Source: Myxococcota bacterium
Lineage (GTDB): Bacteria > Myxococcota_A > UBA9160 > PR03
Assembly (NCBI GenBank): GCA_041611735.1
Contig: JBFIML010000004.1
Span: 1 to 64,000 of the forward strand
Direction of reading: 5' to 3'
DNA: 64,000 nucleotides
Positions 1,205 through 30,432 of the stretch are shown piece by piece; position 1 is the first letter of the stretch; the number at the start of each line of letters is the position of its first letter. The notes below the pieces were generated by a model. It did not search any database. It saw only the letters and a program-made list of their open reading frames with translations, and had not been told where the DNA came from. The position numbers and the translations under genes are program-made.

Positions 1205-4003
1205 ATGGCAGCGACGACGGGCACCTGGGCGGACGGCTACCGGAAGCGCTGGACCTGGGATCGGGTCACCTGGGGAAGTCACGCGGTGGACTGCTACCCG
1301 GGCGGCTGCCCCTGGCGCATCTACAGCAGGGACGGGCGAATCGTCCGCGAGGAGCAGGCCGGCTCGCTGCTCCCGGTCGAGCCCGGCATACCGGACATGA
1401 ACCCGATGGGCTGCCAGAAGGGCGCCTGCTGGAGCCACTGCCACTACTCGCCCGACCGTGTCACCCGTCCCCTCAAGCGCGTCGGCAAGCGTGGCGAGGG
1501 CAAGTTCGTGGCAGTCTCCTGGGACGAAGCACTCTCCGACATCGCCGACGCGATGCTCGACGCCATCCAAGAGCAGGGACCAGCCTCGATCATCACGCTC
1601 TTCACGCCGGAGCCGGGCGCGGCCCCGGCGCGGGTCTTCGCGGAAGCGCTCGGGCTCCCCATGACCGACGGCAATGCCGAGTTCCAGGACTTCAGTCCCG
1701 GCTGGCACCTGACCTGGGGGCTCTTCAATCCCACCTCCAGCATGGACGACTGGTTCCTGGCGGAGCTGACGCTCATCTGGCATGCGAATCCCGTCTACAC
1801 CAACATCCACTGGTATCACTATCTGGCCGAGTCCCGCTACAACGGCGGCGAGATCGTCACGATCGCGCCCGACTACAGCCCCTCCGCCATCCACGCCGAC
1901 CACCATCAGCCGATCCGCATCGGCACCGACGCGGCGCTCGCCCTCGGCATGTGCAAGGTGATCATCGACGCCGGACTCTACGACCGGAAGTTCGTCCAGG
2001 AGCAGACGGATCTCCCGCTCCTGGTCCGCCGGGACGACGGACGCTTCCTGCGCGGCTGCGACGTCGCCGAGGGGGACCGGGACGACCAGTTCTTCTGGTG
2101 GGACACGCTCACGGGCACGCTGGCCCCGGCTCCGCGCGGAACCCTGGCCACCACGGGCGTGGATCCTGCCCTCGAGGGAGCGCACGCCGTCCTGCTCAAG
2201 GGCGGTCGCACGGTCGACGTCGAGCCGGTGTTCGCCCGGCTGCGCCGGCATCTCCAGGCGTACACGCCGGAAAAGGCGGGAGCGATCTGCGAGATCCATC
2301 CCGACAACATCCGCAAGCTGGCACGCCAGGTCGCGACCCGGAAGACCAAGATCTTCATCGGCTGGAACTCCGGGAAGTACTACCACGGCGACCTGATGGA
2401 GCGCTCCATGGCGCTGCTCCTGGGGCTCACCGGCAACTGGGGCAAGCGGGGCACGGGGACGCGCTCCTGGGCGATCACCGGCTACGACGGGGAGGTCTTC
2501 CTGCCCCAGAAGCAGGGGCCGGGCCAGGAGCAGGCCCAGAAGCACATCGCCGGGATGATCGCGATGCGTCGTCTGGTCGCCCAGTCGGACCCCACCTTCA
2601 CGGCGGAGATGGTCCAGAACCGGATCGCCCGCATGGCGGCCGACCTGCGCAGCATGGGATTTCCGATGCCGCCCGCTTTCCTCTGGTACTTCCAGTACGG
2701 GTACAAGGAGCGCTGGAACGATCCCGCCAACCACGACCCCTCCATGAAGCGCACCTTCGACGAGTACGTGAACGAGGCGATCGAGAAGGGCTGGTGGGAT
2801 CCGCGCTACGCCAGCATCTACCGCGACGTCGCGCCGCGGGTGCTGTTCGAGTCGGGCGGCAACGTGCTCCGGCGTCAGCGTGGCGGTCAGAAGCTGCTGC
2901 TCGAGCACCTCTGGCCGAAGCTTCGCATGGTCGTGTCGTGCGACTACCGGCTCACGACGACGGGCCTCTATTCGGACTACGTGCTGCCGGCGGCCCAGCA
3001 CTACGAGAAGCTCGGCTTCAGCATGCCCTCCGTGCATCACCTGAACTTCGTGCTCTGTGATCGGGCTGCGCCGCCGGCCGGCGAATCCCTCCCGGATCGC
3101 GAGATCGGGATCCGCCTGCTCGAGAAGATCGAAGAGCGCGCCGCCGCGCGCGGAATGACCCGCTTCGAGACCACCAACGGCAGCGAGCAGAGCCTCGAGG
3201 GTCTGGTGGACGCGGTCACCCAGCGCGGCGCCATGCGCGACGAGGAAAAGCGCTTCGACGAGGTGGTGCGCGACAACGCCGTCTACGGCGTGCTGCCCAG
3301 GGGAACCACGCTCGAGACGCTGCGCAAGAAGGGTGCGGTGCGCTTCCTGAACTGGGGCATGGTGGGTCACGGCACCGCTCAGGGATCGACCCTGCGCCCG
3401 GACGAGGTGCACAATCCGCTGCGCTGGCACACGGAGGACAAGATCCCCTACGACACGCTCGTTCGCCGCGCACAGTTCTACATCGACCACGAGTGGTTCC
3501 TGGAGGCGGGCGAGGAGCTTCCGACCCACAAGGAGCCGCCCCCCCACGGCGGCCGCAACCGGCGCTTCCTGATGACCAGCGGCCACAACCGCTGGAGCAT
3601 CCACTCCATGAACATGACCAACGACGTGATCCTGAACACGCACCGGGGCGAGCCGTTCGCGTTCTTGAACGACCAGGATGCGCGGGACCTCGGCATCGAG
3701 AACGGCAACCGAATCCGGGTGAAGAGCGACGCGGGCGAGATGCTGATCACCGCCAAGCTCTCCCCCGCGTGCCGACATGGCCAGCTGATCGTCTACAACG
3801 GCTTCGAGCCCTACATGCACGAGGACTGGTACGGACAGGCGGACCTCGAGCCGGGACACGTGAAACACCTGGGATTCGCCGCGGGCTACGGACATCTGTG
3901 CTACCGGCCCCTGGCCTGGCAGCCGATCCCCGCCGACCGGGCGGTGAGGGTCGACGTGGAGGCGGCGGACGCAAGCACCCGCCTGCGTGCGTCAGAGGCC
4001 TGA
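1205..4003 (+). CDS. Type II DMSO-reductase-family Mo-bisPGD alpha subunit A1 (EbdA/S25dA-like), no Tat signal
   Basis: FS0 motif SHAVDCYPGGC...GCQKG; putative Mo-ligand Asp in NAEFQDFSPG; EQTDLPLLVR; GKYYHG; C-terminal GHNRWSIHS; GGAGG RBS just upstream of the ATG. Confidence 0.93.
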   Translation: MAATTGTWADGYRKRWTWDRVTWGSHAVDCYPGGCPWRIYSRDGRIVREEQAGSLLPVEPGIPDMNPMGCQKGACWSHCHYSPDRVTRPLKRVGKRGEGKFVAVSWDEALSDIADAMLDAIQEQGPASIITLFTPEPGAAPARVFAEALGLPMTDGNAEFQDFSPGWHLTWGLFNPTSSMDDWFLAELTLIWHANPVYTNIHWYHYLAESRYNGGEIVTIAPDYSPSAIHADHHQPIRIGTDAALALGMCKVIIDAGLYDRKFVQEQTDLPLLVRRDDGRFLRGCDVAEGDRDDQFFWWDTLTGTLAPAPRGTLATTGVDPALEGAHAVLLKGGRTVDVEPVFARLRRHLQAYTPEKAGAICEIHPDNIRKLARQVATRKTKIFIGWNSGKYYHGDLMERSMALLLGLTGNWGKRGTGTRSWAITGYDGEVFLPQKQGPGQEQAQKHIAGMIAMRRLVAQSDPTFTAEMVQNRIARMAADLRSMGFPMPPAFLWYFQYGYKERWNDPANHDPSMKRTFDEYVNEAIEKGWWDPRYASIYRDVAPRVLFESGGNVLRRQRGGQKLLLEHLWPKLRMVVSCDYRLTTTGLYSDYVLPAAQHYEKLGFSMPSVHHLNFVLCDRAAPPAGESLPDREIGIRLLEKIEERAAARGMTRFETTNGSEQSLEGLVDAVTQRGAMRDEEKRFDEVVRDNAVYGVLPRGTTLETLRKKGAVRFLNWGMVGHGTAQGSTLRPDEVHNPLRWHTEDKIPYDTLVRRAQFYIDHEWFLEAGEELPTHKEPPPHGGRNRRFLMTSGHNRWSIHSMNMTNDVILNTHRGEPFAFLNDQDARDLGIENGNRIRVKSDAGEMLITAKLSPACRHGQLIVYNGFEPYMHEDWYGQADLEPGHVKHLGFAAGYGHLCYRPLAWQPIPADRAVRVDVEAADASTRLRASEA

Positions 4004-4063: not shown

Positions 4064-4882
4064 ATGAAAGCGATTCAGGGCATCAGCCTGGTGGATGTGA
4101 GTACGGTCTACGACGGCCCCGAGGTCGACCTGTGGGAGCTCGTGATGGGTCAGCAGGTCCACATCGGCGGCTTCCGGTCGTCGATGGAGCTGGCCGAGCG
4201 CGCCGGCGTGGGCGCGGGCCAGCGGGGCGTGGACCTCTGCTGTTGCAGCGGTGCGGGAATGCGCTTGCTGGTGCGCTTCCGCGACGTCGCCTCGATGACC
4301 GGCGTCGACGCCACGCGGACCGTGGTCGAGCGCGGCATCGCTCGAACCGACGAAGAAGGCCTTTCCGACCGAATCCGATTCGTCCGCGCGGACGCCTGCG
4401 ACACCGGCCTGCCCGATGCCCAGGCCGACTTCGTCTGGGGCGAGGACGCCTGGTGCTACGTCGTGGACAAGCCGGGGCTGGTGCGGGAGGCCGTGAGGCT
4501 CGTGCGGCCGGGAGGCACGATCGCCTTCACGGATTGGATCGAGGGCCCGACCGGCTTGGACGAAGCCGAGGCGGAGCGCCTGCTCCGCTTCATGAAGTTC
4601 CCGAACGTACAGGACTTGTTTGGCTATTCGCAGCTTCTCGAAGGAAGCGGCTGCGAGGTGGTCGAGGCCTCGGATACCGGACGCTTCGCTCCCCACATCG
4701 ATCTGTATCTCGACATGATCGACAAGCAGCTCACGTACGACGCGCTGCGCATCATCGGTTTCGACAGCAAGGCGCTCGAGGCGCTCGCCGGTGGCATGAG
4801 CTTCCTCCAGGAACTCGCCCGGGCGGGCAAGGTGGCGCAGGGACGCTTCGTCGCGCGCCGCCGCGAGGAGACGCCTCGCTAG
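4064..4882 (+). CDS. Class I SAM-dependent methyltransferase
   Basis: Motif I variant VDLCCCSGAG, GVDAT, VRADAC, LVRPGG. Confidence 0.85.
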   Translation: MKAIQGISLVDVSTVYDGPEVDLWELVMGQQVHIGGFRSSMELAERAGVGAGQRGVDLCCCSGAGMRLLVRFRDVASMTGVDATRTVVERGIARTDEEGLSDRIRFVRADACDTGLPDAQADFVWGEDAWCYVVDKPGLVREAVRLVRPGGTIAFTDWIEGPTGLDEAEAERLLRFMKFPNVQDLFGYSQLLEGSGCEVVEASDTGRFAPHIDLYLDMIDKQLTYDALRIIGFDSKALEALAGGMSFLQELARAGKVAQGRFVARRREETPR

Positions 4883-6183
4883 CGAGGGTTGCCGACGGCC
4901 TCTGAGCCTGCGGAGCCCGCTCGGCGCTCGTCCCGATGGCCGCCCGAGAGGTCGATTGCGAAGCCCCGCTCGCGCAGCAGGTCCTTGGCAATGGTGAGGG
5001 TCTGGATCTCGCTGGTTCCGGCGGCAACGGTCCACAGTTTGATGTCGCGGAAGAGCCGCTCGGGCGCGTGCTCCTGCATGTAGCCCGAGCCGCCCAGCAC
5101 CTGGACCGCCTCGAGGGCGGCCTCGACGGCCGCCTCGGTGGCATACCACTTGGCTGCACTCAATTCGCGCTCGGAGCCCTTCTGCTCGCGTTGCAGCCAG
5201 ATCAGCTTGAAGGTCAGGTTGCGCACGTTCTCGTACAGCACGTACATGCGCGCCAGCTTCTGCTGGATCAGTTGGAACGCTGCGATCGGCTTCCCGAACT
5301 GCTGGCGGTCCATGGCGAAGGCGATCGAGTCCTCGAGGCAGCGCTCGATCACCCCGAGGCACATGGCCACCACCGCGGCACGCTCGATGGCCAGCGTCCG
5401 CTCCGCCAGCGTTCGTGCCGGACGTTCGGGATCGCCGAGCAGGTGGCTGCGCGGCACCCGGCAACGCTCGAGGAAGACCTCGCCCGTGGGCGTGGCGTGC
5501 ATGCCGAGCTTCTTCATCGGCGTTCCGGTGGAGAGGCCCGGGGTGCCTCGCTCCACCACCACGGGGAAGACATGCCGCTTGTCGCGCCGGTCGCCCCCCG
5601 CGGTCTCGAGGCGCGCGTAGATCAGGAAGACGTGGGCGGCCGGCGCATTGGAGATGAAGGTCTTGCTTCCGTCGATGATTGCCTCATCCCCCTCGATGCG
5701 CACCGAGGTCTTGAGGGCGAAGGCATCGGAGCCGGAGCCGGGCTCCGTGAGCGCCCAGCAACCCACCTTCTCGAGGGTGAACACGGGGATGGCACAGCGC
5801 TCGATCAAGTCGGCGTCGCCCTTCGCAGCGATCGTGGAGCCGCAGCCGAAATTGCTCATCAGGCAGAGCGCGAGGCCGGGGCTCACGCGCGCGAGCTCCT
5901 TGGAGACGAGCGCCGAGACGGCGGGATCCCCGCCCCAAGCGTGCGCGTCGCCGTCGCGGGCCTCCACCCCCACGCTGCCTCCCTCGCGCAGGTGCTGCAC
6001 CTTCTTGCGCAGGGAGGAGCCGAGCAGAGCATCGAGGCCGAAGGTATCGGCGAACTTGCGCAGCACCGGGTACGGCGATCGCTCGCCCGACTCGATCCGG
6101 GGGACCAGCGGCTCGATCTCCCGGCGGCAGAATCCACGGATCGCGTCCTGGATGGCGAGATGGGTGTCGTCGAACTCGAACAT
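4879..6183 (-). CDS. Acyl-CoA dehydrogenase (isovaleryl-CoA dehydrogenase-type Glu placement)
   Basis: WALTEPGSGSDA, GSKTFISNA, QQFGKPI, VLGGSGY, AAGTSEIQ; start taken at MFEFDD; stop overlaps the convergent methyltransferase stop. Confidence 0.92.
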   Translation of the reverse strand: MFEFDDTHLAIQDAIRGFCRREIEPLVPRIESGERSPYPVLRKFADTFGLDALLGSSLRKKVQHLREGGSVGVEARDGDAHAWGGDPAVSALVSKELARVSPGLALCLMSNFGCGSTIAAKGDADLIERCAIPVFTLEKVGCWALTEPGSGSDAFALKTSVRIEGDEAIIDGSKTFISNAPAAHVFLIYARLETAGGDRRDKRHVFPVVVERGTPGLSTGTPMKKLGMHATPTGEVFLERCRVPRSHLLGDPERPARTLAERTLAIERAAVVAMCLGVIERCLEDSIAFAMDRQQFGKPIAAFQLIQQKLARMYVLYENVRNLTFKLIWLQREQKGSERELSAAKWYATEAAVEAALEAVQVLGGSGYMQEHAPERLFRDIKLWTVAAGTSEIQTLTIAKDLLRERGFAIDLSGGHRDERRAGSAGSEAVGNPR

Positions 6184-6271
6184 GGGCGTCGTCCCGGTTG
6201 CGGGCCTGCCGCGCCGCCGAACGACCCACCGATCTCCGGGTGGTGGATGGGTGGCCCGGCGGGCAGGCCGT

Positions 6272-6700
6272 TCACGAATCGGGCGCGCCGGCATCGAGAT
6301 CGCGATCGATCGACTCGAGGAGGTGCTCCTCCGCCTGCTCGTGCTCGTGGAAGCCGTTCCAGAGCTCGGCCAGAGCCCCCTGGGCCCGCTCCGAGTCGTT
6401 CGCTGCCAGGCCAGCGCGGACCCCTTCCAGGAGCTCGAGCAGATCGCCGTGGGCTTCCACGAGGGCGCTCAGGGCCGCCTTGCGTTGCGGCTGGAGCGCC
6501 CAGATCGAGGGGTAGTAGAGACACCCCTCCCGGTCGAAGTGCGCCTCCAGGGCTTCGCCGAGCTGCGCCAGGATCTCTCGGCTCGGCTCCCCGTCGGCAC
6601 CCCGAAGAGCCCTCCTCAGCTCCTCGAACAGAGCCTCGAGCTGGCGATGCTCCGCGGCCACCTCCCGGCGCACCCCTTGCTCCGTGTCCCAGGCCGGCAT
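6272..6700 (-). CDS. Hemerythrin (HHE) domain protein
   Basis: Helical 142 aa with EH...HFDRE...EAH...HEQAEE diiron-ligand pattern; purine-rich RBS. Confidence 0.8.
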   Translation of the reverse strand: MPAWDTEQGVRREVAAEHRQLEALFEELRRALRGADGEPSREILAQLGEALEAHFDREGCLYYPSIWALQPQRKAALSALVEAHGDLLELLEGVRAGLAANDSERAQGALAELWNGFHEHEQAEEHLLESIDRDLDAGAPDS

Positions 6701-6739: not shown

Positions 6740-6755
6740 TATGATCCCGATCATA
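6740..6755. promoter_or_regulatory. Crp/Fnr-type palindrome TATGAT-cccg-ATCATA between the divergent hemerythrin and Crp/Fnr genes
   Basis: Perfect 6-bp arms with a 4-bp spacer; the same motif recurs four more times in the island's intergenic DNA. Confidence 0.7.
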
Positions 6756-6798
6756 CAGGGGCGTGGGGCCGCAGTCACTCGCTGCCGGGTGGAGATCG

Positions 6799-7467
6799 TT
6801 GCCCGAGCAACCGGACGTCGAGATCGAACAGGCGGAGTTCTACCGGAGCTTGCGGGCGGAGCAGATGGAGCGGGTGCGCCACCACCTCCGCCCGCGCCAG
6901 TACCCGAAGCAGCGCATGCTGTTCTTCGAGGGAGAGCCGGCGGAGTACCTCTGGGCCCTGCACCGGGGAGGCGTGCGCCTGTACCGCAGCTCCCTGCAGG
7001 GACGCATCGCGACGCTGGAGACGCTGGGGCCCGGGAACGTCTTCGGCGCGCTCTCCGCCATCGAGCAGGACACCTACCCGGTCAGCGCCGAGACGCTGGG
7101 GGAGACCGTCGCCTGGCGGCTGCCGCGACGCGCTTTTCTGGGCCTCCTCGCGGAGGACCCGCGCCTCGGCCTGGAGATCCTGCGCATCGTCTCGCAGCGC
7201 CTGCGCGAGGCGCAGGCCCACCTGTTGTCCCTCGCCCATGACTCCGCCCCCACGCGCCTCGCCCGGGCGCTGCTCAACGCCACCTCGGGCAACGAGGCGC
7301 GGGTGACGCGCCGGGCGCTGGCCGAGGTGGCGGGAACCTCGGTGGAGACGGCGATCCGGGTGCTGCGGCGCTTCGAGCGCGAGGGGCTCATCCACGGCGA
7401 GATCGGACGGCTGGAGGTGCTCGACCGGCCGGCGCTCCAGCGCATCGCGGGCCAGGGCGAGGGCTGA
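6799..7467 (+). CDS. Crp/Fnr-family regulator, Cys-free (Dnr/NnrR-like)
   Basis: cNMP-like domain (LFFEGEPA, GNVFGA, YPVSA) plus HTH GTSVETAIR; TTG start chosen from GGAG at 6791 (the ORF track starts at 6763). Confidence 0.88.
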   Translation: MPEQPDVEIEQAEFYRSLRAEQMERVRHHLRPRQYPKQRMLFFEGEPAEYLWALHRGGVRLYRSSLQGRIATLETLGPGNVFGALSAIEQDTYPVSAETLGETVAWRLPRRAFLGLLAEDPRLGLEILRIVSQRLREAQAHLLSLAHDSAPTRLARALLNATSGNEARVTRRALAEVAGTSVETAIRVLRRFEREGLIHGEIGRLEVLDRPALQRIAGQGEG

Positions 7468-7481
7468 AGCGGGCCGCGGCC

Positions 7482-7497
7482 TATGACCCCTGTCATA
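7482..7497 (+). promoter_or_regulatory. Palindrome TATGAC-ccct-GTCATA upstream of the A2 operon
   Basis: Perfect arms; NANNNT hexamer CACCCT 21 nt downstream. Confidence 0.72.
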
Positions 7498-7553
7498 CCG
7501 GCGAGACGCCAGCTCACCCACCCTCCGAAGGGTTTGACCGACGGTGGCTGGAT

Positions 7554-10400
7554 GTGGCTGGTCTCTCGCGACGCGAGTTCCTCGGGGCCGGTGCGGCGGG
7601 CGCGCTTGCGCTCGGGCTGAACCGCCTCGCCTGGCTGACGCCGCCCGCCGCGCGAGCCGCAGCGGCTCCTGCCTACCTCGGCTGGCAGGACCTGTATCGC
7701 GAGCGCTGGCGCTGGGAACGGGTGGTGCGCGGCACCCACACCAACGCCAACTGCGTCTCGTCCTGCGCCTGGAACCTCTACGTGCGCGGCGGGATCGTCT
7801 GGCGCGAGGAGCAGTCGTCCCCCTATCTGGCGTCGAACCCGGCGCTGCCAGACTGGAACCCGCGCGGCTGCCAGAAGGGCGCAAGCTGCAGCGACCTGGC
7901 CCTCGGGCCCGCGCGGATCCGCCACCCCCTTCGCCGCGTCGGCGCGCGGGGTGAGGGACGCTGGAAGCGGATCTCGTGGGACGAAGCGCTCGAGGAGATC
8001 GCCGGCGCACTGCTGGAGGTCCTCGCGCGGCGCGGAGGGGAAGGGGTCGTCTGCGAGCTGGGACCGAACGTGGACTACGGACCGAACACCGCCGCGGCCC
8101 TGCGCTTCTTCCGCCAGATCGGCGCGCCCCTCACGGACTCGATGGCCCAGATCGGGGATCTGGCGGTGGGGGGCACGATCACCCTGGGCACGCCGCACAC
8201 CGACGGCACCTCCGATGACTGGTTCCGCTCCGACTACCTCGTGCTCTGGGCCTTCAATCCCGCGGCGACGCGGATTCCCGACGCCCACTTCGTCCACGAA
8301 GCGCGCTACCGGGGTGCGCGGGTGGTCTGCGTCGCACCCGACTACAACCAGAGCGCCATGCACACGGACCTCTGGCTGGGAGTCCGGCCCGGGAGCGACG
8401 CCGCGCTGGCGCTGGCCGCCTGCCAGGTGGTGCTGGAGGAAGACCTGCACCACGCCGACTACCTGCGCGAGCAGACGGACCTCCCCTTCCTGGTCCGCAG
8501 CGACGGCCGGCGCCTGCTGCGCGAGTCGGACCTGATCGAGGGGGGCCGCGACGATCGCTTCGCGTTCTGGGACGAGGCGGCCGACGCCCTGGTCTGGGCT
8601 CCGGGCACGGCGGGCAGTACGGAGCGCACCTTGCGGCTGCCCCCGGGCGTGCGTCCGGCGCTGGAGGTACGCCGCACGGTACGCCTGCGCGACGGGAAGC
8701 CGGTGGAGGTGCGCAGCGTCTTCTCCCTGCTGCGCGAGCGGCTCCACGGCGGCTTCCGTCCCGAGCAGGTCGCCGCCCACACCGGCATCGCTCCCGACGT
8801 GATCCGGCGCTTCGCGCGGGAGTTCGCCCGGGCGCGCTCCGCGCTCATCCTCGCCCAGTGGGGAAGCTGCAAGAACTACCACTCGGACCTGATCCAGCGC
8901 GCCCAGATCCTGCTGGCGTCGCTCACCGGGAACCTGGGACGCCCGGGGGGCGGCTGGCGTTCCGGGGCCTTCGTGGTGCTCGACGGGCTCGGAGCGGTGG
9001 CGTTGCAGGACCGGCTCGGCCTGCTCGGCCTGGGCCAGCTCTTCCTCCGCTCGCTCTTCGATCCCGAGGCCGTGCGGAGCGAGTTCGAGTCGATGTACGT
9101 CCCGAGCACGATCTTCCACGCCGTGCACGGGGGCCTGGCCGAGTTCGAGGGCGCCGCGGCCCACGGCGATCCGATGCTGCCCCGGGGCGCCGCGCCCTAC
9201 CTCGAAGCGGCGGTGCGGCGCGGGCACTTTCCGGTGGGGCCCGCGCCCGGGTCGGCCCCGCCCGAGGTGATCTTCTCCTTCTGCGGCAACGTGCTCCGGC
9301 ACACCCGCATGGGAGAGCGGGTGCGCGACACGCTCTTCGCCCGCGCGCGCCTGGTCGTGGACCTGAACTTCCGGATCAGCGAGACCGGCCGCTACGCGGA
9401 CATCCTGCTGCCGGCCGCGGCCTGGTACGAGAAGATCGGCATCAAGTACATCGCCGCCTTCGTCCCCTACGTCACGCTGGCGGACAAGGCCGTCGAGCCG
9501 CTGGGCGAGGCGAAGCCGGAGTGGGAGGTCTTCGCCCGCCTCGCCGCCGCCGTCGCCACCGAAGCCAGGCGGCGCGGGGTCGGCCCGGTGCGCGGCTTCC
9601 GCGGCCAGCCCTGCGAGATCTCCGCGCTCGACGAGCGCTTCAGCGACGGCGGGCGCTTCGGCCCCGATGCCCAGGAGGACGTGATGAGGCTGATCCTGCG
9701 GCTCTCGCAGCCGACCCGCGGCATCAGCCTGGAGGACCTGAGACGCGAGGGCGGAGCGCTGCGGATCCGGAGCCTCGGCAGCCAGGGCGGCACCGCAGGA
9801 ATCTTCTCCGATTACGCGCCGGACGAGCCGGTGGTCCCGCTGCGCGACTTCGTGGAGAAGAAGCAGCCCTATCCGACGCTGAGCGGGCGTCAGCAGTTCT
9901 ACGTGGACCATCCCTGGTTCCTCCAGCTCGGCGAGGAGCTCCCCACCCACAAGGCCCCGCCCGCCGCGGGCGGGGCCCACCCCTTCACGCTGACCGGCGG
10001 ACACACGCGCTGGAGCATCCACTCCATGTGGCGCGATCAGGCGCTGATGCTGCGCCTGCAGCGCGGCGAGCCGGCCGTGTATCTCAACGCGTCGGATGCC
10101 CGGGCGCGTGGGATCAGCGACCACGACCTGGTCCGGGTGCGCAACGATTGCGGGGCGTTCGTGGCCCGGGCCAAGCTCTCGGGGGGAATCCGGCCCGGAC
10201 AGGTGCACATCTTCCACGCCTGGGAGCCCTACCAGTTCCGCACCGGACGGAGCCACCAGTCCCTGGCGCCGAGCCCGTTCAAGGTGACCCAGCTGGTGGG
10301 AGACCACGGGCATCTGCGTTGGGGCTATGCGCACTACGAGCCGAACCAGGTCGATCGCGACACGCGCGTCGACGTGGAGCGGCTCGGGGCCTCCGTCTAG
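7554..10400 (+). CDS. Type II Mo-bisPGD alpha subunit A2, Tat signal
   Basis: SRREFLG plus hydrophobic region; THTNANCVSSC...GCQKG; QIGDLAVG; CKNYHS; GGHTRWSIHS. Confidence 0.93.
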   Translation: MAGLSRREFLGAGAAGALALGLNRLAWLTPPAARAAAAPAYLGWQDLYRERWRWERVVRGTHTNANCVSSCAWNLYVRGGIVWREEQSSPYLASNPALPDWNPRGCQKGASCSDLALGPARIRHPLRRVGARGEGRWKRISWDEALEEIAGALLEVLARRGGEGVVCELGPNVDYGPNTAAALRFFRQIGAPLTDSMAQIGDLAVGGTITLGTPHTDGTSDDWFRSDYLVLWAFNPAATRIPDAHFVHEARYRGARVVCVAPDYNQSAMHTDLWLGVRPGSDAALALAACQVVLEEDLHHADYLREQTDLPFLVRSDGRRLLRESDLIEGGRDDRFAFWDEAADALVWAPGTAGSTERTLRLPPGVRPALEVRRTVRLRDGKPVEVRSVFSLLRERLHGGFRPEQVAAHTGIAPDVIRRFAREFARARSALILAQWGSCKNYHSDLIQRAQILLASLTGNLGRPGGGWRSGAFVVLDGLGAVALQDRLGLLGLGQLFLRSLFDPEAVRSEFESMYVPSTIFHAVHGGLAEFEGAAAHGDPMLPRGAAPYLEAAVRRGHFPVGPAPGSAPPEVIFSFCGNVLRHTRMGERVRDTLFARARLVVDLNFRISETGRYADILLPAAAWYEKIGIKYIAAFVPYVTLADKAVEPLGEAKPEWEVFARLAAAVATEARRRGVGPVRGFRGQPCEISALDERFSDGGRFGPDAQEDVMRLILRLSQPTRGISLEDLRREGGALRIRSLGSQGGTAGIFSDYAPDEPVVPLRDFVEKKQPYPTLSGRQQFYVDHPWFLQLGEELPTHKAPPAAGGAHPFTLTGGHTRWSIHSMWRDQALMLRLQRGEPAVYLNASDARARGISDHDLVRVRNDCGAFVARAKLSGGIRPGQVHIFHAWEPYQFRTGRSHQSLAPSPFKVTQLVGDHGHLRWGYAHYEPNQVDRDTRVDVERLGASV

Positions 10401-10424: not shown

Positions 10425-11663
10425 GTGACGGGTCGCGGCAGCGAGCGGGCGGGACTCCGGGAAGGGCTGCCCCTCGTCATCGCGGGGTTCGTGATCTCCT
10501 TCGTGCTGATCGGCGGCGGGGTGAACAGCGTGGGCGTGTTCCTGAACGCCATCGCCCAGGGAACCGAATGGACGCGCTCCGCGCTCTCCCTGGCCGTGGG
10601 CGTGGGCGCCGGGGTGGCGGCGCTCTGCGTGCCCGCGGTGGGTCTCGCCGTGGACCGCGTGGGCGTGCGGGTGCCGATGACCGGCGGACTCGCGCTACTC
10701 GCCGCCGGCTTCTCCATCCTGGTCGGAATGCAGGCCCCCTGGCAGTTCGTGGCGGCGAACGTGCTCCTCGGGGCCGGCTTCGCTGCGTCGGCCTTGTTTC
10801 CGATCACGGTCGCGATCACCCTGCGCATTCGCGAGCGCACGGCCCTGGCCCTGGGCCTCGCCGCGGCCGGCTCGAGCGCGGGCGCCCTGGTGCTGGCGCC
10901 CATGCTGCAGCTCGCCATCGAAGCGCTGGGGTGGCGCACCACCTATCTGGTGCTTGGCGTGGCCGTGGTGGCGACCCCGCTCCCGTTGCTCGCCTTCGCG
11001 CTGCCGCGCGGACGCCTGATGGGCCCGGCCGCCGTGAAAGCCCGCGGTGCCGCCCCTCTAGCCGGGTCCGGCCCGCTCGAGTGGCTCCAGCCGGGCGTCG
11101 CGACGCTCGCGGCCCTGCTGGTGCTCCCGAACCTGGCGACCTTCGCCGTCTCGGTCCACCTCGTGCCGTACCTGACGGGAATCGGCCTGTCGGGACGCAC
11201 CGCGGCGCTGGCGCTGGGGACGACGGTGGGCATCTCGGCCCTGGGCAAGATCCTGGGCGGCGCAGCGGGCGACCGCCTGGGCCTGCGAGCCACGCTCCAG
11301 GGGGCATTGCTGCTGGGCTTCGTCTCCCTGGGGCTGCTGGCCTGGGCCAGCGAGCCGCGCGCACTGGTCGGGTTCGTGGCGCTCTACGGCCTGGCCCTCG
11401 GCACCTACGTCGCCGTGATCCCGCCGCTCGCGCGCGACGTGCTCGGCGCGGAGCGTTTCGGCGCTCGCTACGGAACGCTCCAGCTCGGCGGCATGCTCGC
11501 GGCCGCCGCGGGCCCCGTACTGGCAGGAGCCTGCTTCGATGCCACCGGCCGCTATCGGGAGGCGATCGGGCTCTGGCAGGGGGCCCTGGCGGCCGCCCTC
11601 GCGGTGTCGCTGCGGCTGCGCGCCGTGGCCGCACCCCAGGAGCCGCAGGTCGCAGCGCCATGA
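10425..11663 (+). CDS. MFS transporter
   Basis: About 12 hydrophobic segments; GLAVDRVGVR and GAAGDRLGLR motif-A loops. Confidence 0.88.
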   Translation: MTGRGSERAGLREGLPLVIAGFVISFVLIGGGVNSVGVFLNAIAQGTEWTRSALSLAVGVGAGVAALCVPAVGLAVDRVGVRVPMTGGLALLAAGFSILVGMQAPWQFVAANVLLGAGFAASALFPITVAITLRIRERTALALGLAAAGSSAGALVLAPMLQLAIEALGWRTTYLVLGVAVVATPLPLLAFALPRGRLMGPAAVKARGAAPLAGSGPLEWLQPGVATLAALLVLPNLATFAVSVHLVPYLTGIGLSGRTAALALGTTVGISALGKILGGAAGDRLGLRATLQGALLLGFVSLGLLAWASEPRALVGFVALYGLALGTYVAVIPPLARDVLGAERFGARYGTLQLGGMLAAAAGPVLAGACFDATGRYREAIGLWQGALAAALAVSLRLRAVAAPQEPQVAAP

Positions 11664-16746: not shown

Positions 16747-17418
16747 ATGCAGGCTCGCCACGTCGCCGGCGCCGACCTGGAGGCGCTGCTCGATCCGGCC
16801 GGGCGGCCCTGGCGCGGCGTGCGCTCCGAACGGCTCGCCCTGGTCGGGACCCCAGCGGGCATGCAGCCGAGCGCGGCGATCCGCGTGGCCTGGACGGGAA
16901 AGCGGATCGGAGCCGTGGACCGCGTCGCCGTCTCGAGCCTCCACAACGGTGAGGTCCTCGCCTTCCGGCTCGAGTGGCAGGACGCCACCGAGGATCGCGC
17001 CCTCATCGACACCAACTCCTTCCCGGACGCGGCGGCGGTGGCTCTGCCCGCGGCGCCCGAGGCGCCGCTGGTCACCATGGGAGCGCCGGGTGCTGCGGTG
17101 AACGCCTGGTACTGGCGCGCCGACGAGGACGGCCGCGGACGGCACGTCGTGGCCGAGGGCCTGGGAACCTCGCGCACCCTCGATCTCGAGCGGGTGCGCG
17201 GGCGCGGAGTGTGGAAGGAGGGACGCTGGCGCGTCGTCGTCGCCCGGCCGCTGCGCGTGGCCACCTCGGAGCCGGTGGTCCAGCTCGAGCCCGGCAAGAC
17301 CACGCGCTTCGCGGTGGCGGTCTGGGACGGACGGAGCGGCGAGCGCGCCGGGATCAAGGCCTTCTCGGCGGGATGGCGCGAGCTTCGCCTCGAGCCCGTG
17401 GCCAGGGCCGGGAGGTAG
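16747..17418 (+). CDS. Heme b gamma subunit (EbdC-like)
   Basis: FRLEWQD, FPDAAAV, VTMG (Met ligand), AVWDG...ERAGIK (Lys ligand); AAGGAGG RBS; no signal peptide. Confidence 0.88.
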   Translation: MQARHVAGADLEALLDPAGRPWRGVRSERLALVGTPAGMQPSAAIRVAWTGKRIGAVDRVAVSSLHNGEVLAFRLEWQDATEDRALIDTNSFPDAAAVALPAAPEAPLVTMGAPGAAVNAWYWRADEDGRGRHVVAEGLGTSRTLDLERVRGRGVWKEGRWRVVVARPLRVATSEPVVQLEPGKTTRFAVAVWDGRSGERAGIKAFSAGWRELRLEPVARAGR

Positions 17419-21402: not shown

Positions 21403-24299
21403 CGGGCAGCGGGTTTCCTCTGCTCACCCGCCGCGCGCTCCTGGTGGGCGGCGCAGCGAGCGTGGCCGTGCTCTCCCTCGGCAGGCTGCGTCTCGACCTC
21501 GGGGCGAAGCCCGCCGCCGCGGGCGCCGTGGCCTATCGGGGTCCCGGCGACCTCTGGCGCTCCCAGTGGCGCTGGGACCGTGTCGCGCGCACTTCCCACG
21601 CCCGGGCGAACTGCATCTCCGCCTGCTCCTGGAACGTCTTCGTGCGCGACGGCATTGCCTGGCGCGAGGAGCAGAACGCGATCTACGCCCCCGTCGAGCC
21701 GGGCGTCCCCGACTTCAATCCGCGCGGCTGCCAGAAGGGGGCCTGCTACACGCACCTCATGTACGAGCCTTCGCGGGTCACGCATCCGCTGCGGCGGGTC
21801 GGCGAGCGTGGCTCGGGGCGCTGGAAGCGCGTCTCCTGGGACGAGGCGCTGACCGAGACGGCCGACCACATCATCGACGCCTCGTTGCAGTCGGGCACGG
21901 GCGCGGTCGTCTACGACCACGGCACCACGAACATCGACTTCGGACCGGACACGGCCGGCGAGATGCGGCTCTTCCGCATCCTCAACGCCACCGTCATCGA
22001 CTCCTGGGCCGGGGTGGGAGACATGCCCTACGGGGCCGTGCAGACCTGGGGCATGTACAACGTCGAGGGCACCGCGGACGACTGGTTCAAGTCGGACTTC
22101 ATCGTGGTCTGGGTCGGCAACCCGGCCTACACGCGGATCCCGGAAGTGCACTTCATGCACGAGGCGCGCTACCGGGGTGCCCGGCTGGTGGTGATCGCGC
22201 CGGACTACAACGCGAGCGCAATCCACGCCGATTACTGGCTCAATCCCAGGGTCGGCACCGACGCGGCGCTGGCGCTCGCCATGGCGCAGGTGATCCTCGC
22301 CGAGGGCCTCCACGACGAAGCCTACGTGCGCGAGCAGACCGACCTGCCGATCCTGGTACGCGAGGACACCGGCCGGTACCTGCGCCAGTCGGACCTCCGC
22401 GAGGGCGGGAGCGAGAAGCTCCTCTACTACTGGGACGAGGCGTCGGATGAGCTCGCGGCGGTGCCCGGTTGCCGGGGCGAGGGCGGGCGCTCGCTCGCCC
22501 TGGGCCGACTGCGGCCGGCCCTCGGCGGGCGCAGGAGCGTGCGTCTGGCCGACGGCACCGAGGTGTCGGTCCGTCCGCTCCTGGAGCGTCTGCGCGAGCA
22601 GCTGGACGAGAGCTATCCGCCGCGACGGGTGGCGGAGGTGACGGGGGTCGGGGCGGACACGGTCCGGCGCCTCGCCCGCGAGCTGGCCGCGGCGCCGCGG
22701 GCGATGATCTTCTCCTCGTGGGGCGCCTGCAAGCACTACCACAGCGACCTGGTCCAGCGCGCCAAGATCCTGCTGATGGCGCTGACCGGCAACCAGGGCA
22801 GGAGCGGCGGTGGCCTGCGCGTGGCCTCGTGGTGGCCGATGGAGGGGTTCGATCGGCTGGCGGCGGCTCCCGGCGAGATCTCCCTGGGCACGAAGCTGCG
22901 AGCCATGTTCCGAGGCCTGTTGGGCCGCTTCGGCTGGCGCGAGTTCGAGACGCTCCTCGAGGACATGGTCCCCAAGCGCGGCAACACGCCGCTGATGCCC
23001 TGGCTGTACGTGCACGGGGGCTACTCCGAGATCTGGGACCGGCGCGAGTACCAGGATCCGGCCGTGCCGCGCAGCACGGCGGAGTACGTCCGGGAGGCCA
23101 TCGAGCGCGGCTGGATTCCGATCCGCCCCGCTCCCGGAACGGACCCCAAGGTCTTCGTCTTCACCGGACCGAATCCCCTGCGGCGCTGGCCTTCGCCACA
23201 GGTGGCGCGCAGGCACCTGTGGCCCAAGCTCGATTGGATCGTGGACGTCAACTTCAAGGTCAGCACGTCCGGGATGCAGGCGGATCTGATCCTCCCGACG
23301 GCGGGCTACTACGAGCGGGACTCGCTCAAGTACTCGCAGGCCTATCTGCCCTACCTGGTGCTGTGCGAGAAGGCGGTGGAGCCTCTGGGCGAGGCGAAGC
23401 CGGAGTGGGAGATCTTCGGCCTGCTGGCGCGCACGATCCAGCATCGCGCCCGCGCTCGCGGCGTCGGCCCGGTTGCAGATGCCGTGGGCGGCGAGACGGA
23501 CCTGGCCAGGGTCTACGATCTGTGGAGCGATGGCGGCAGCCTCCACGAGGGCGACGCCAAGGCGGTGCTCGAGAAGATCCTGCGCGGGACCCGCACGACC
23601 GGGAAGGCCGGTCTGGCGGAGGCCCGGGGGACCGGCCTGCTGCCGGTGTTGGAGGCGAAGGGCACCCCGAATCCGCTCTACGCGGTGGCGACCGACTACC
23701 GGCCCGGCCGCACCCTGTATCCCCACGCCCGCTTCGTGGAGGACAAGGAGGTCTGGCCGACGCTCTCGGGACGTCAGCAGTTCCTGATCGACCATCCCTG
23801 GTACGAGGAGGTCGGGGAGACCCTGCCCGTGCACAAGGAGCCGCCCAGGGCGGGCGGGGAGTATCCCCTCCGCCTCACCGGCGGGCACACGCGCTGGTCG
23901 ATCCACGCCACCTGGCGCGACTCCCCGCTGATGCTGCGGCTGCAGCGCGGAGAGCCGGCCGTCTGGGTCTCGACTCGGGACTGCCAGTCACGCGGCGTTC
24001 GCGACGGCGACCGGGTGCGCGTCTACAACGACAACGGCGAGTTCGAAGCCATCGCGAAGGTCTCGGGCGCCGTGCAGCCCGGGCAGGTGATCATCTACCA
24101 CGCCTGGGAGCCCTACCAGTTCAAGCGCTGGAGGGGCCAGCAGGAGCCCGTCGTGGCACCGTGGAAGGCGCTGCACCTGGCCGGAGGCTACGACCAGATC
24201 CACTACCGCATGATCTACGGCGCTCCGGGGCACGCGCCGCGCGGGGGCACCGTCGACATCGAGCGGGTGAGGCCGGGTGCCGGGAGAGACCGCGCGTGA
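21399..24299 (+). CDS. Type II Mo-bisPGD alpha subunit A5, Tat signal
   Basis: GTGA overlap with A4; LTRRALL; SHARANCISAC...GCQKG; GVGDMPYG; CKHYHS; GGHTRWSIHA. Confidence 0.92.
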   Translation: MTGSGFPLLTRRALLVGGAASVAVLSLGRLRLDLGAKPAAAGAVAYRGPGDLWRSQWRWDRVARTSHARANCISACSWNVFVRDGIAWREEQNAIYAPVEPGVPDFNPRGCQKGACYTHLMYEPSRVTHPLRRVGERGSGRWKRVSWDEALTETADHIIDASLQSGTGAVVYDHGTTNIDFGPDTAGEMRLFRILNATVIDSWAGVGDMPYGAVQTWGMYNVEGTADDWFKSDFIVVWVGNPAYTRIPEVHFMHEARYRGARLVVIAPDYNASAIHADYWLNPRVGTDAALALAMAQVILAEGLHDEAYVREQTDLPILVREDTGRYLRQSDLREGGSEKLLYYWDEASDELAAVPGCRGEGGRSLALGRLRPALGGRRSVRLADGTEVSVRPLLERLREQLDESYPPRRVAEVTGVGADTVRRLARELAAAPRAMIFSSWGACKHYHSDLVQRAKILLMALTGNQGRSGGGLRVASWWPMEGFDRLAAAPGEISLGTKLRAMFRGLLGRFGWREFETLLEDMVPKRGNTPLMPWLYVHGGYSEIWDRREYQDPAVPRSTAEYVREAIERGWIPIRPAPGTDPKVFVFTGPNPLRRWPSPQVARRHLWPKLDWIVDVNFKVSTSGMQADLILPTAGYYERDSLKYSQAYLPYLVLCEKAVEPLGEAKPEWEIFGLLARTIQHRARARGVGPVADAVGGETDLARVYDLWSDGGSLHEGDAKAVLEKILRGTRTTGKAGLAEARGTGLLPVLEAKGTPNPLYAVATDYRPGRTLYPHARFVEDKEVWPTLSGRQQFLIDHPWYEEVGETLPVHKEPPRAGGEYPLRLTGGHTRWSIHATWRDSPLMLRLQRGEPAVWVSTRDCQSRGVRDGDRVRVYNDNGEFEAIAKVSGAVQPGQVIIYHAWEPYQFKRWRGQQEPVVAPWKALHLAGGYDQIHYRMIYGAPGHAPRGGTVDIERVRPGAGRDRA

Positions 24300-24976
24300 C
24301 GGAGTCGAGGCTCGAGGGACTCGAAGGGGAGGCGCAGCTCGCCGCCGCGCGGCGCAGCCAGGCGTATGGGCTCTTCGCCCGGGCCTGGGAGTACCCCGAG
24401 GCGGAGCTGCGCGAATCGATCACCTCCGGCGAGCTCGCGGAGCGGCTCTGCGAGACGCTCGCCTCCATCGATCCGGCCCTCGTCGAGGACGCGGACCGCC
24501 AGGCCCTCGCCGAGACCGGCGCGGGCGACGACCTCGAGGTGGAGTACACGCGGCTGTTCGACGTCGGCCCCTCCGGCCCGCCCTGCCCCCTCCACGGCGG
24601 GCTCTACGGCGGCGCCCGCATGAAGGTGATGGAGGAGGCGGTGCGCTTCTACAACCACTTCGGCCTGAGCCTCTCCGAGAGCCCGCGCGAGCTTCCCGAC
24701 CACCTCACCACCGAGCTCGAGTTCCTCCACTACCTGAGCTTCCGCGAGGCGCAGGCGCTCCAGGCGGGAGAGGATGCGGAGCCCTTCCGGCGCGCCCGGC
24801 GGGACTTCGTGGAGCGGCATGCTGGGCGCTGGATCCCCCGCCTGCGCGAGCGCCTGGAGGCGCAGGATGCAGCGCCCTTCTTCCGGGAGCTGGCGCGGCG
24901 GCTCGAGCGGCTGCTGCTTCACGAGAAGGCGCAGCTCGACGCCGAGCTCGGCCCGGCCCGCCCCGGCGGACGCTGA
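24296..24976 (+). CDS. TorD/EbdD-family maturation chaperone (delta)
   Basis: GTGA overlap; EYTRLFDVG, FYNHFGL, ELPDHLTTELEFLHYL. Confidence 0.9.
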   Translation: MTESRLEGLEGEAQLAAARRSQAYGLFARAWEYPEAELRESITSGELAERLCETLASIDPALVEDADRQALAETGAGDDLEVEYTRLFDVGPSGPPCPLHGGLYGGARMKVMEEAVRFYNHFGLSLSESPRELPDHLTTELEFLHYLSFREAQALQAGEDAEPFRRARRDFVERHAGRWIPRLRERLEAQDAAPFFRELARRLERLLLHEKAQLDAELGPARPGGR

Positions 24977-24979
24977 TCC

Positions 24980-26032
24980 GTGTGGGGCGTCGTCTACCAC
25001 GGAGCCGGTGACTTCTGCTGGGAGGAGGTCGGGAAGCCCGTCCTCCAGGGGCCTGCCGACGCCATCGTGCGCGTCCGTCGCGCAGGCATCTGCGGCTCGG
25101 ATCTGCACCTGTGGCACGGCCTGCCGCTCCCGGACCGCGGCTTCGCAGTCGGCCACGAGTTCGTGGGAGTGGTCGAGGAGGTGGGACCGGCGGTCCGCAC
25201 GCTGGCGCCGGGCGACCGGGTGCTGGTCTCGTGCACCGCCGGTTGTGGCACCTGCGAGGCGTGCCGTAGCGGCCTCCACTCAGGCTGCTCCGTCACCACC
25301 GGTGGCGGTGCGCACAGCAACGTGTTCGGCTTCTCCCGGTCCCTGGCGGGTGGTCAGGCCGAGGCGGTGCGGGTTCCCTTCGCCGACGTGAACGCGTTCC
25401 GGATCCCCGACGCCATGGACGACGAGCGGGCGCTCTTCCTCACCGACGCGCTGCCTACCGCGGACATGGCCACGGAGCTGGCCGCCGTGGAGCCCGGCGA
25501 CGCGGTCGTGGTCTTCGGCTGCGGCCCGGTCGGCAGCCTCGTGCAACGCTGCGCTCGGCTTCGGGGCGCCGCACGGGTCATCGCGGTCGACCCCGACCCG
25601 GCGCGCCTCGCGCGGGCCCGGGAGCGCGGCTGCGAGGTCGTGAACCCCGACGCGGAGGACCTGGTGAAACGCGTCCTCGGGCTCACCGGGGGGCGCGGCG
25701 CAGATGCGATCGTGGAGGCGGTGGGGCGCGCCGAGCTCGTCGCCAGCGCCGTCACCCTGGCGCGCCCGGGAGGTCGCATCGCCGTGGTGGGTCTGATCGC
25801 CGCCCCGGTGGAGCTCCCCTGGGGCGCCCTCCTGCTGAAGAGCCTCTCGCTGCGAACGGGTCTCGTGAGCCCGCAGCGGCACGTGACCCGGCTGCTGGCC
25901 CTGCTCGAGTCCGGCCGCCTCGATCCGATGGATCTGATCACCCACCGCCTCCCCCTGTCCCGGGCGGTGGAGGCCTACCGGATGCTGTCCGCCCGCAAGG
26001 GAGACGCTCTCAAGGTCGTCCTGGCCGCCTAG
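24980..26032 (+). CDS. Zn-dependent medium-chain alcohol dehydrogenase
   Basis: CGSDLH, GHE, CGTCEAC...C structural Zn site, GCGPVG NAD motif. Confidence 0.9.
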   Translation: MWGVVYHGAGDFCWEEVGKPVLQGPADAIVRVRRAGICGSDLHLWHGLPLPDRGFAVGHEFVGVVEEVGPAVRTLAPGDRVLVSCTAGCGTCEACRSGLHSGCSVTTGGGAHSNVFGFSRSLAGGQAEAVRVPFADVNAFRIPDAMDDERALFLTDALPTADMATELAAVEPGDAVVVFGCGPVGSLVQRCARLRGAARVIAVDPDPARLARARERGCEVVNPDAEDLVKRVLGLTGGRGADAIVEAVGRAELVASAVTLARPGGRIAVVGLIAAPVELPWGALLLKSLSLRTGLVSPQRHVTRLLALLESGRLDPMDLITHRLPLSRAVEAYRMLSARKGDALKVVLAA

Positions 26033-26045
26033 GATGACTCACGCG

Positions 26046-26061
26046 TATGACTGCGGTCATA
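26046..26061 (+). promoter_or_regulatory. Palindrome TATGAC-tgcg-GTCATA upstream of the cytochrome c gene
   Basis: Perfect arms; GAGACT 21 nt downstream. Confidence 0.72.
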
Positions 26062-26136
26062 TCGCCGGCCCCGCCGATCCCCGAGACTGGGGTGTGGAAA
26101 CCCCTTCCCCCCCGCGCTTGCCACCGGGATCTGGCC

Positions 26137-26544
26137 ATGAGGCTCGGGACACGAGGGGGCACGTTGCTGCTGGCGTTGGCCCTCGGGGCCAGCGCCTCCG
26201 CGGACGCGGCTCCCGATGGGCTGGAGCCCCATGGGCGCGCGCTCTACCGGGCCTACTGCGAGGCCTGCCACGGGTCCCTCGCCGATCCCGGGGCGGTGGG
26301 GCGCGTCGCCACGAAGCGGGGGGCCCCGCCGGACCTCACCCGACTCGCCGAGCGGCACGGGACCAACCTGCCGAAGGCAAAGCTGGTGCACGAGGCCATG
26401 GGGGCGTCGCGCGCCGGCCACACCAGCATCTGCGGCGAGCGAATCTTCGCCAAGCTGCCCGCCGCCTCGGCCGCCGAGCTCATGAAGCGCGGCACCCTGC
26501 TCACGGTCCTCTACTACCTGGAGACCGTCCAGAGGACCGACTGA
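26137..26544 (+). CDS. Secreted monoheme c-type cytochrome
   Basis: Signal peptide (LLLALALGASASA), CEACH heme motif, PPDLT, C-terminal YYLETVQ. Confidence 0.82.
   Translation: MRLGTRGGTLLLALALGASASADAAPDGLEPHGRALYRAYCEACHGSLADPGAVGRVATKRGAPPDLTRLAERHGTNLPKAKLVHEAMGASRAGHTSICGERIFAKLPAASAAELMKRGTLLTVLYYLETVQRTD

Positions 26545-30432: not shown

Follow-up and report, generated by a model that had tools for sequence, protein, structure and literature searches.

To our knowledge, water-dependent molybdenum hydroxylases offer the only known oxygen-free attack on unactivated C-H bonds in alkyl-aromatic compounds and in the side chains of sterols, and all of the studied enzymes of the ethylbenzene dehydrogenase (EBDH) type are periplasmic, with a twin-arginine translocation (Tat) leader on the alpha subunit. 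Work on such hydroxylases has been confined to a handful of denitrifying Betaproteobacteria. In one of these, Aromatoleum aromaticum, we take the order of the ebd genes to be alpha-beta-gamma-delta. In Sterolibacterium denitrificans, home of the steroid C25 and C26 dehydrogenases S25DH1-4 and S26DH1-3, published work describes eight alpha paralogues, fewer beta and gamma subunits, a shared beta3gamma3 and one delta chaperone (PMC6016249, PMC7411048, PMC8449060, PMC11061730). Here we describe an array of this kind in the first 64,000 nucleotides of contig JBFIML010000004.1 (assembly GCA_041611735.1), from an uncultured marine member of the Myxococcota; this whole stretch is called the window below. 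The array holds six alpha genes (A1 to A6, in order of position), two genes for Fe-S beta subunits (B1 and B2), one for a haem b gamma subunit and one for a delta chaperone. We consider it most likely, with a probability of roughly 0.7, that these genes encode two linked sets of EBDH-type enzymes with a molybdenum-bis(pyranopterin guanine dinucleotide) cofactor (Mo-bisPGD), which would hydroxylate C-H bonds in hydrophobic chains, alkyl or isoprenoid, with water and without O2.

Compared by gene content and published description, the array resembles the S. denitrificans systems in several respects. The same four reports give a Tat leader on alpha, a gamma-beta-alpha order and a cytochrome c acceptor, and they place a kinase, an alcohol or aldehyde dehydrogenase and a CoA ligase later in the pathway. 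The array differs in its phylum, in having two leaderless alphas (A1 and A6) that go with a beta but no gamma, and in the arrangement of four exported alphas in one run around a single gamma, beta and delta. A kinase gene adjoins an alpha gene here; for S. denitrificans, what we read of those reports does not connect the gene for 25-HSK with any alpha gene. EbdABC(D) of A. aromaticum (structure 2ivf) is the best solved match of A1, A4, gamma and B2, with the Asp ligand of molybdenum and Lys450 retained; unlike the Ebd enzyme, the array has several alphas, two of which are leaderless, its gene order is another, and it departs from EbdA at His192 and in its model scores (see below). The chlorate reductase ClrABDC of Ideonella dechloratans (NZ_CP088082.1) belongs to the same family, with the same kinds of subunit and with a c-type cytochrome and mobB beside its operon. 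However, it has one alpha per beta and gamma and a chlorite dismutase next door, and ClrA, only 33% identical to A4, falls in a separate, well-supported clade.

A preliminary description of this DNA had reported six intact alpha genes against only two for beta and one each for gamma and delta, along with mobB. All six alpha frames are indeed open, encoding 927-966 residues between positions 1202 and 30432, and Pfam and NCBIfam matches identified each of the partner genes. The excess of alphas over beta and gamma subunits extends to the whole genome (4.09 Mb in 118 contigs, 95% complete), in which subunits of this type number 6 (alpha), 2 (beta), 1 (gamma) and 1 (delta). All six alphas of the type II dimethyl sulfoxide (DMSO) reductase kind (type II alphas) fall inside the window. 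The possibility that each alpha has its own beta and gamma elsewhere was followed up across the genome, and the only further beta, gamma and delta adjoin a NarG-like frame on another contig (C17, about 61334-67800, locus L120), in a set where the NarG-like alpha is accompanied by a beta resembling NarH, a gamma of the EB_dh type and a chaperone. That alpha is an open frame of 1274 codons reaching the contig end; it has a Tat leader and branches with Nar-type sequences. The reported absence of a NarI or DmsC anchor also held, with no match to PF02665 or PF04976 in the genome; two NrfD-type genes lie elsewhere in it.

A similar imbalance was found in related genomes. Type II alpha matches (E <=1e-100) were present in 16 of 41 genomes of the order, this one included, with up to 12 in a single genome. 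Alpha matches outnumbered beta matches in all 11 genomes, again including this one, that had at least four alpha matches; as alpha/beta, the numbers, which count fragments and are not exact copy numbers, were 6/2 (G000), 8/3 (G014), 12/4 (G015), 10/5 (G017), 9/1 (G019), 4/1 (G021), 11/2 (G024), 7/2 (G029), 7/4 (G032), 5/3 (G035) and 5/3 (G039). Matches to gamma and delta were as few or fewer in most of the 11. In S. denitrificans, where the same imbalance is described, alpha1, alpha2 and alpha3 have each been obtained in active form with beta3gamma3 and one chaperone (PMC6016249). Thus the principle of sharing is already known, and what sets the present case apart is the lineage, the form of the operon and the split between two compartments proposed below.

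All six alphas matched PF00384 and PF01568. The type II DMSO-reductase alpha model TIGR03479 was the best model for each (822-914 bits, cut-off 984.75), followed in each case by the EbdA model NF042978 (544-726 bits, cut-off 2000), and the NarG model gave only 200-333 bits. The sequences in our set that did exceed the TIGR03479 cut-off were mainly Clr- or pNar-like. Against solved structures, A4 scored 679 bits with EbdA (2ivf_A), 506 with PcrA and 269 with NarG, and A1 scored 691, 449 and 173 bits, respectively; the structures matched by these two included none from the S25DH/S26DH system. The cofactor motifs named in the preliminary description, that is, the His/Cys motif of the FS0 cluster, GCQKG, the Asp at the Mo-ligand position and K-x-Y-H, are invariant in a six-way alignment; in A1 numbering, the columns are H27, C31 and C36 (FS0), G70-C71-Q72-K73-G74, D163 and K392/Y394/H395. 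In pairwise alignments of A1 and A4 to EbdA, D163 aligns, by count, with Asp223 of EbdA and K392 with Lys450, which, like His192, we take to be an active-site residue. A1 and A6 are 81% identical to one another, and the identity to A1 falls to 37-40% for A2-A5.

Searching 1.84 billion representative sequences with a profile built from the six alphas yielded 47 proteins of at least 850 residues. A maximum-likelihood tree of 47 rows and 934 columns was built with 32 of these 47 representatives, the six alphas, five EbdA-like sequences, the genome's own NarG-like protein and three named sequences, which are the only named anchors: ClrA (Ideonella), pNarG (Haloferax mediterranei) and NarG (Paracoccus). 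All six alphas fell in one clade of 33 rows (support 98/99). This clade stands apart from a 7-row ClrA clade (93/96) and from rows of the Nar type, and it excludes pNarG of Haloferax, NarG of Paracoccus and the NarG-like protein of C17. Within the 33 rows, A2, A3 and A5 belong to a clade of 10 (X; 96/90) that has no characterised member, A4 to a clade of 9 (Y2; 100/100), and A1 and A6 to a clade of 13 (Y1; 100/99) that includes the six rows scoring highest on the EbdA model. A quick tree of 57 rows agreed. These placements, together with the structure scores, support the view that the six are putative hydroxylases of the EBDH-like type and not of the Clr or Nar type. The prospect that the alphas would cluster with respiratory reductases was not borne out in this tree with its three named anchors, and of the earlier assignment to an EBDH/S25DH type it is the EBDH part that stands, the S25DH part being putative.

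The nearest relatives are all from uncultured organisms, in agreement with the idea that the lineage has no characterised example. A search of genome contigs with A1 gave, as its best 80 relatives (78 loci), metagenome-assembled genomes (MAGs) only, at no less than 49% identity and with no named reference alpha among them; their labels include Myxococcota or 'delta proteobacterium', Dehalococcoidia or Chloroflexota, Binatia and Acidimicrobiia, among others. The search with A4 found at least 120 homologues at 65% identity or more, with no named Sterolibacterium sequence among the matches listed. One of the 120 listed bears the automatic JGI name 'steroid C-25 hydroxylase alpha subunit', which we take as a hint only. 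A search with an EbdA-like representative (P0138) returned no Aromatoleum or Sterolibacterium name among its matches, the cluster members of 30 related proteins carried MAG labels and no named reference, and a search of plasmids for reference alphas found ClrA, pNarG and NarG only. Two representatives of clade Y2, P0129 and P0140, are alphas of 1130-1152 residues with an N-terminal extension of about 220 residues and no Tat leader. The extension of P0129 matches a NarJ/delta-type chaperone domain (PF02613, 51 bits) and that of P0140 does so weakly (16 bits); this is a fusion of chaperone and alpha.

The six alphas divide by their N-termini. A2 to A5 begin with Tat leaders (SRREFL in A2, and TRRELL, SRRAFL and TRRALL in the others of the set), and A1 and A6 have none. 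For A1, only 10 codons separate the upstream stop (1172) from the GTG start, and for A6 the ATG at 30432 is the first start codon of the frame, so that neither has room for a leader. Both belong to a clade of five rows (97/94), every one of which is leaderless; its sister (90/88) is the EbdA-like group, with twin-arginine (RR) leaders in six of six rows. We surveyed 45 close orthologues of A1 and A6 in 40 loci. The conserved N-terminal motif was located in 40 of the orthologues, and a crude RR pattern was present in 8 of these 40; on reading, none of the eight showed a following hydrophobic stretch or a start codon at leader distance. A beta gene lies directly downstream in 19 of the 45 and a gamma gene within 3 kb in 2, with at least 900 nt of downstream DNA in the locus for 35 of them. 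Two leaderless alphas flank one beta in three loci (L001, L003 and L013), and an alcohol dehydrogenase stands between two leaderless alphas in another (L007). De novo clustering of the neighbours at A6-B2 loci revealed no conserved third subunit, the recurrent 'families' being mostly shadow frames in alpha or beta.

B2 aligns to EbdB over 335 residues (398 bits) and, by reading, retains the four Cys groups. The gamma subunit aligns to EbdC (2ivf_C) from residue 1 (110 bits) and, like EbdC, has no signal peptide; it has Met and Lys at counted positions 108 and 201 of 2ivf_C, presumably the haem ligands. The six alphas thus have a single gamma among them, and the A6-B2 pair has no gamma next to it. 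The division of leaders between A2-A5 and A1/A6, together with a B2 that has no gamma, suggests two sets of enzymes, probably in two compartments. The proposal of six heads on one common module accordingly fails for A1 and A6, since the leaders and gamma, B1 and delta go with A2-A5. The idea of interchangeable heads is kept in a narrower form, with sharing indicated by gene counts and synteny for A2-A5 on gamma, B1 and delta. A6 with B2, and probably also A1 sharing that B2, would form a haem-less cytoplasmic alpha-beta enzyme, passing electrons to some other acceptor. A literature search, made mostly outside subscription journals and excluding supplements, gave no paper on a leaderless or cytoplasmic EBDH-like enzyme, nor on such enzymes in Myxococcota or MAGs.

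The exported set lies in a run of 13 same-strand genes (7554-26544), from A2 to a cytochrome c gene in the order given in Table 1, whose ends overlap or are at most 87 nt apart. We examined synteny in 17 regions of 10 related genomes, picked for holding alpha matches. In 8 of the 10 genomes (G014, G015, G021, G024, G032, G033, G035 and G039), the gene right after an A4-type alpha is one for an A5-type alpha, and gamma and beta lie upstream of the A4-type alpha wherever the contig extends that far. Delta directly follows the A5-type alpha in five (G014, G015, G021, G024 and G035). The genome G011 has MobB-gamma-beta-A4-delta with a single alpha, and G017 has gamma-beta-A4. In G014 and G015, the order is A2-A3-cytochrome-MobB-gamma-beta-A4, and the cytochromes between A3 and MobB are weak orthologues of that at 26047..26544 in the window. 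A Crp-family regulator precedes the A2-type alpha in G017, as one precedes A2 here. In one region (L106, G015:C2, about 7295-10158), the A4-type gene is broken up into some ten short frame pieces, although the beta and the A5-type genes on either side are intact; decay of this copy or an error-rich assembly is the probable cause.

These arrangements are consistent with a mechanism in which the four Tat-leader alphas A2-A5 would take turns on one beta/gamma pair (B1/gamma) and a single delta would mature all four. Electrons would pass from molybdenum to FS0, then along the four B1 clusters to the gamma haem b, and finally to a periplasmic cytochrome c, for which the predicted product of 26047..26544 is a candidate.

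Table 1. Genes of the array and its immediate neighbours (window coordinates)
Feature	Position	Strand	Matches and remarks
Acyl-CoA synthetase (AMP-binding), 3' part	2..1162	+	PF00501, PF13193; 5' part on contig C74
A1, alpha, leaderless, EBDH-like, 933 aa	1202..4003	+	No adjacent beta
S-adenosylmethionine-dependent methyltransferase	4064..4882	+	PF08241
Acyl-CoA dehydrogenase	4879..6294	-	PF00441, PF02770; NCBIfam acyl-CoA dehydrogenase models
Crp/FixK-family regulator	6763..7467	+	PF00027, PF13545; directly upstream of A2
A2, alpha, Tat leader, 948 aa, clade X	7554..10400	+	
Major facilitator superfamily (MFS) transporter	10425..11663	+	PF07690; between A2 and A3
A3, alpha, Tat leader, 952 aa, clade X	11660..14518	+	Start overlaps MFS stop by 4 nt
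APH-family kinase	14515..15576	+	PF01636; start overlaps A3 stop
155-aa protein, conserved kinase partner	15576..16043	+	No Pfam/NCBIfam match
MobB, Mo-bisPGD cofactor synthesis helper	16129..16659	+	PF03205, TIGR00176
Gamma, haem b subunit, EbdC type	16747..17418	+	PF09459; TIGR03477 (153.6 bits); EbdC model
B1, Fe-S beta, 342 aa	17421..18449	+	TIGR03478 (534.5 bits, cut-off 480.7); PF13247
A4, alpha, Tat leader, 965 aa, clade Y2	18505..21402	+	
A5, alpha, Tat leader, 966 aa, clade X	21399..24299	+	Start overlaps A4 stop
Delta, NarJ/TorD-type assembly chaperone	24296..24976	+	TIGR03482 (163.7 bits, cut-off 152.3); PF02613
Zn-dependent alcohol dehydrogenase	24980..26032	+	PF08240, PF00107
Small exported c-type cytochrome	26047..26544	+	Hydrophobic N-terminus, one CEACH motif; weak PF13442 match
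B2, Fe-S beta, 350 aa	26555..27607	-	TIGR03478 (466.1 bits); directly downstream of A6
A6, alpha, leaderless, EBDH-like, 927 aa	27649..30432	-	81% identical to A1

The start of the window coincides with an assembly break. Another contig, C74 (locus L119), when reverse-complemented, shares an exact overlap of 141 nt with this start and extends the sequence by 12 kb; the join completes the acyl-CoA synthetase gene, the joined frame being open for 555 residues. Read in the orientation of the window, the genes upstream of A1 encode RmuC, a MOT1-type molybdate transporter, a MoaD/ThiS-like protein, MoaA, an acyl-CoA dehydrogenase, a nitroreductase-family protein, a thiolase and the synthetase; those for the transporter and the MoaD/ThiS-like protein are on the opposite strand. 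The thiolase is of the lipid-transfer-protein type, and such thiolases are typical for branched chains. A1 is on the same strand as the dehydrogenase, nitroreductase-like, thiolase and synthetase genes, and this co-direction with genes of the beta-oxidation type suggests that the substrate or product of A1 is probably a CoA-linked acid. The same module, whole or in part, was found beside alphas in G011, G014 and G015, at loci L003, L013 and L076, and at the Dehalococcoidia loci L023, L024 and L026, which suggests that the products enter CoA-dependent chain shortening. The substrate range put forward in the preliminary description (steroid, isoprenoid or alkyl-aromatic) is a guess.

The kinase gene between A3 and mobB bears on this question. 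Its 39-kDa product has 3dxp (1.1e-22) and an ACAD11 chain (8v3v_A, 1.5e-20) as its best solved relatives, both of which we take to belong with the hydroxyacyl-CoA kinases, as do presumably the kinase domain of ACAD10/ACAD11 and LvaA-LvaB. With these systems the array shares the match to ACAD11 and a small conserved partner gene; it differs in that the kinase has no fused acyl-CoA dehydrogenase domain and the partner no family match. Orthologues of the kinase, 58-66% identical, are present in 15 related genomes, at least nine of which have no type II alpha, and the 155-residue partner, strongly conserved at its N- and C-terminus, adjoins the kinase in 14 of the 15 loci (L080-L094). In this order of bacteria, the kinase and its partner are a conserved two-gene module that is independent of the Mo enzymes. 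In two of the orthologues (G036:C6, L081; G005:C1, L084), one in-frame TGA was reported inside the match.

That the array encodes an O2-independent sterol side-chain pathway like that of Sterolibacterium is a minority reading, which we hold to be unlikely. In it, a C25-type hydroxylase would first produce a tertiary alcohol, the kinase and its partner would dehydrate this alcohol with ATP, and a C26-type hydroxylase, alcohol dehydrogenase, CoA ligase and thiolase would follow. Genes for the last three of these, with the thiolase of the lipid-transfer type, are indeed present, and the kinase, of the APH family, is translationally coupled to A3, an A3-kinase-partner order that recurs in G017. 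The automatic name of the one A4 homologue mentioned above points the same way. The gamma-B1-A4 order matches the gamma-beta-alpha order given for S26DH1 in one report (PMC7411048), and another describes 25-HSK as a 40-kDa phosphotransferase-family protein (PMC8449060). However, the occurrence of the kinase with its partner in genomes that lack type II alphas, together with its kinship to 3dxp and ACAD11, leads us to keep such a cascade in second place. No Sterolibacterium or Denitratisoma sequence was among the 120 kinase homologues listed, all of which are at least 58% identical, so that the list cannot reach those genera. We regard as rather improbable a relay across the membrane on one and the same hydrophobic chain, in which a first hydroxylation in the periplasm would be followed by oxidation and CoA activation, and then by a cytoplasmic hydroxylation of the CoA-bound chain with water by the haem-less alpha-beta enzyme, with the kinase and its partner removing hydroxyls by phospho-elimination. 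The electron outlet in such a relay is perhaps the conserved nitroreductase-like flavoprotein. If true, this would be the first cytoplasmic hydroxylase of the EBDH type, with a new electron outlet.

It is also distinctly unlikely, in our view, that only A4, or A4 with A5, works with gamma, B1 and delta, with A2, A3 and A1 being spare, silent, decaying or in need of partners of another kind; actual sharing would then fall well short of what the gene counts imply. The minimal locus of G011, with its single alpha, would fit this, as would the fragmented A4 orthologue of G015, which suggests that copies decay, and the absence of an adjoining beta from about half of the A1/A6-type orthologues. Against it, all six frames are open and carry every cofactor motif, third-position G+C is as high as 0.89-0.93 in A1, A2, A4 and A6 (the alpha frames listed by the filter), genes of the run share overlapping start and stop codons, and A2-A3 are adjacent upstream of the same core in G014 and G015. 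That the alphas are instead respiratory or detoxifying reductases (for selenate, chlorate, perchlorate or nitrate) or a dimethylsulfide dehydrogenase seems to us highly improbable. The best NCBIfam match is to the general type II model, and for clade X, which has no characterised member, the EbdA model gives lower scores (544-609 bits); yet all six stand apart from the ClrA clade and the Nar-type rows in the tree, A1 and A4 match EbdA far better than PcrA or NarG, the neighbours are genes of CoA-ester and alcohol oxidation, and there is no chlorite dismutase among the window proteins scanned for families.

Several observations tell against our preferred reading of two linked EBDH-type sets. 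All six alphas score below the cut-offs of both NCBIfam models, none exceeding the 2000 bits that define an EbdA equivalog, and even the six EbdA-like rows of the tree reach only 1234-1680 bits on that model, their label being an HMM (hidden Markov model) score. The tree contains no named S25dA, S26dA, CmdA, SerA, DdhA, PcrA or EbdA. His192 of EbdA is replaced by Pro in A4 and Glu in A1, the only two compared. The case for sharing depends on gene counts and synteny in a genome that is 95% complete and in 118 contigs, the synteny regions were chosen for their alphas, and 25 of the 41 genomes of the order have no such alpha. For the leaderless set, about half of the close orthologues have no adjoining beta, localisation is read from the sequence alone, and no acceptor of the alpha-beta pair was identified.

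The gene order itself was checked against other assemblies. Contigs from another study's run (X5), whose pieces each differ from this DNA at 0-7 letters, bridge the junctions A2/MFS/A3, A3/kinase, partner/MobB/gamma/B1, A5/delta and delta/alcohol dehydrogenase/cytochrome/B2; a piece from a further run (X6) bridges A4/A5. Together, X5 and X6 span every gene junction between 9422 and 27399 except B1/A4, which is bridged by X1 only, possibly the source run of the window. Short junction matches with sides of 20-45 letters were taken to represent paralogues or other organisms.

If the genes are as they look, O2-free oxidation of recalcitrant lipids may be far commoner than culture work suggests. 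MAGs with the labels Binatia, Dehalococcoidia and Acidimicrobiia contain close relatives too. The array would then present the sharing principle in a new phylum, split between the two sides of the cell membrane. The leaderless alpha-beta branch, placed beside EbdA-like rows, raises the questions of whether the chemistry can run in the cytoplasm and where the electrons go, and the conserved gamma-beta-A4-A5-delta core would make a compact construct for the existing S25DH expression platform.

The G+C content of the window, about 72%, gives rise to many long spurious open reading frames, and genes were placed by third-position G+C plus candidate start codons. Beyond 30.4 kb, the window holds housekeeping genes unrelated to the array. 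A frame of 1119 codons at 53149-56508 (+), whose third-position G+C of 0.94 is a strong sign of coding, matched no Pfam family at E <=0.01. Two neighbours of the alphas recur elsewhere: an orthologue of the methyltransferase at 4064..4882 (434 bits) adjoins an A3-type alpha in G017, and the MFS-A3 pair is also present in a Binatia locus (L062). The regulator upstream of A2 has FixK as its best NCBIfam match (69 bits, below the model cut-off). The FNR/FixK box TTGAT-N4-ATCAA, with two mismatches allowed, gave 9 matches against 1.8 expected, none of which lies in the gap upstream of A2. An inverted repeat, ATGATCCCGATCAT, at 6741-6754, 9 nt before the start of the regulator gene, may be a site of autoregulation.

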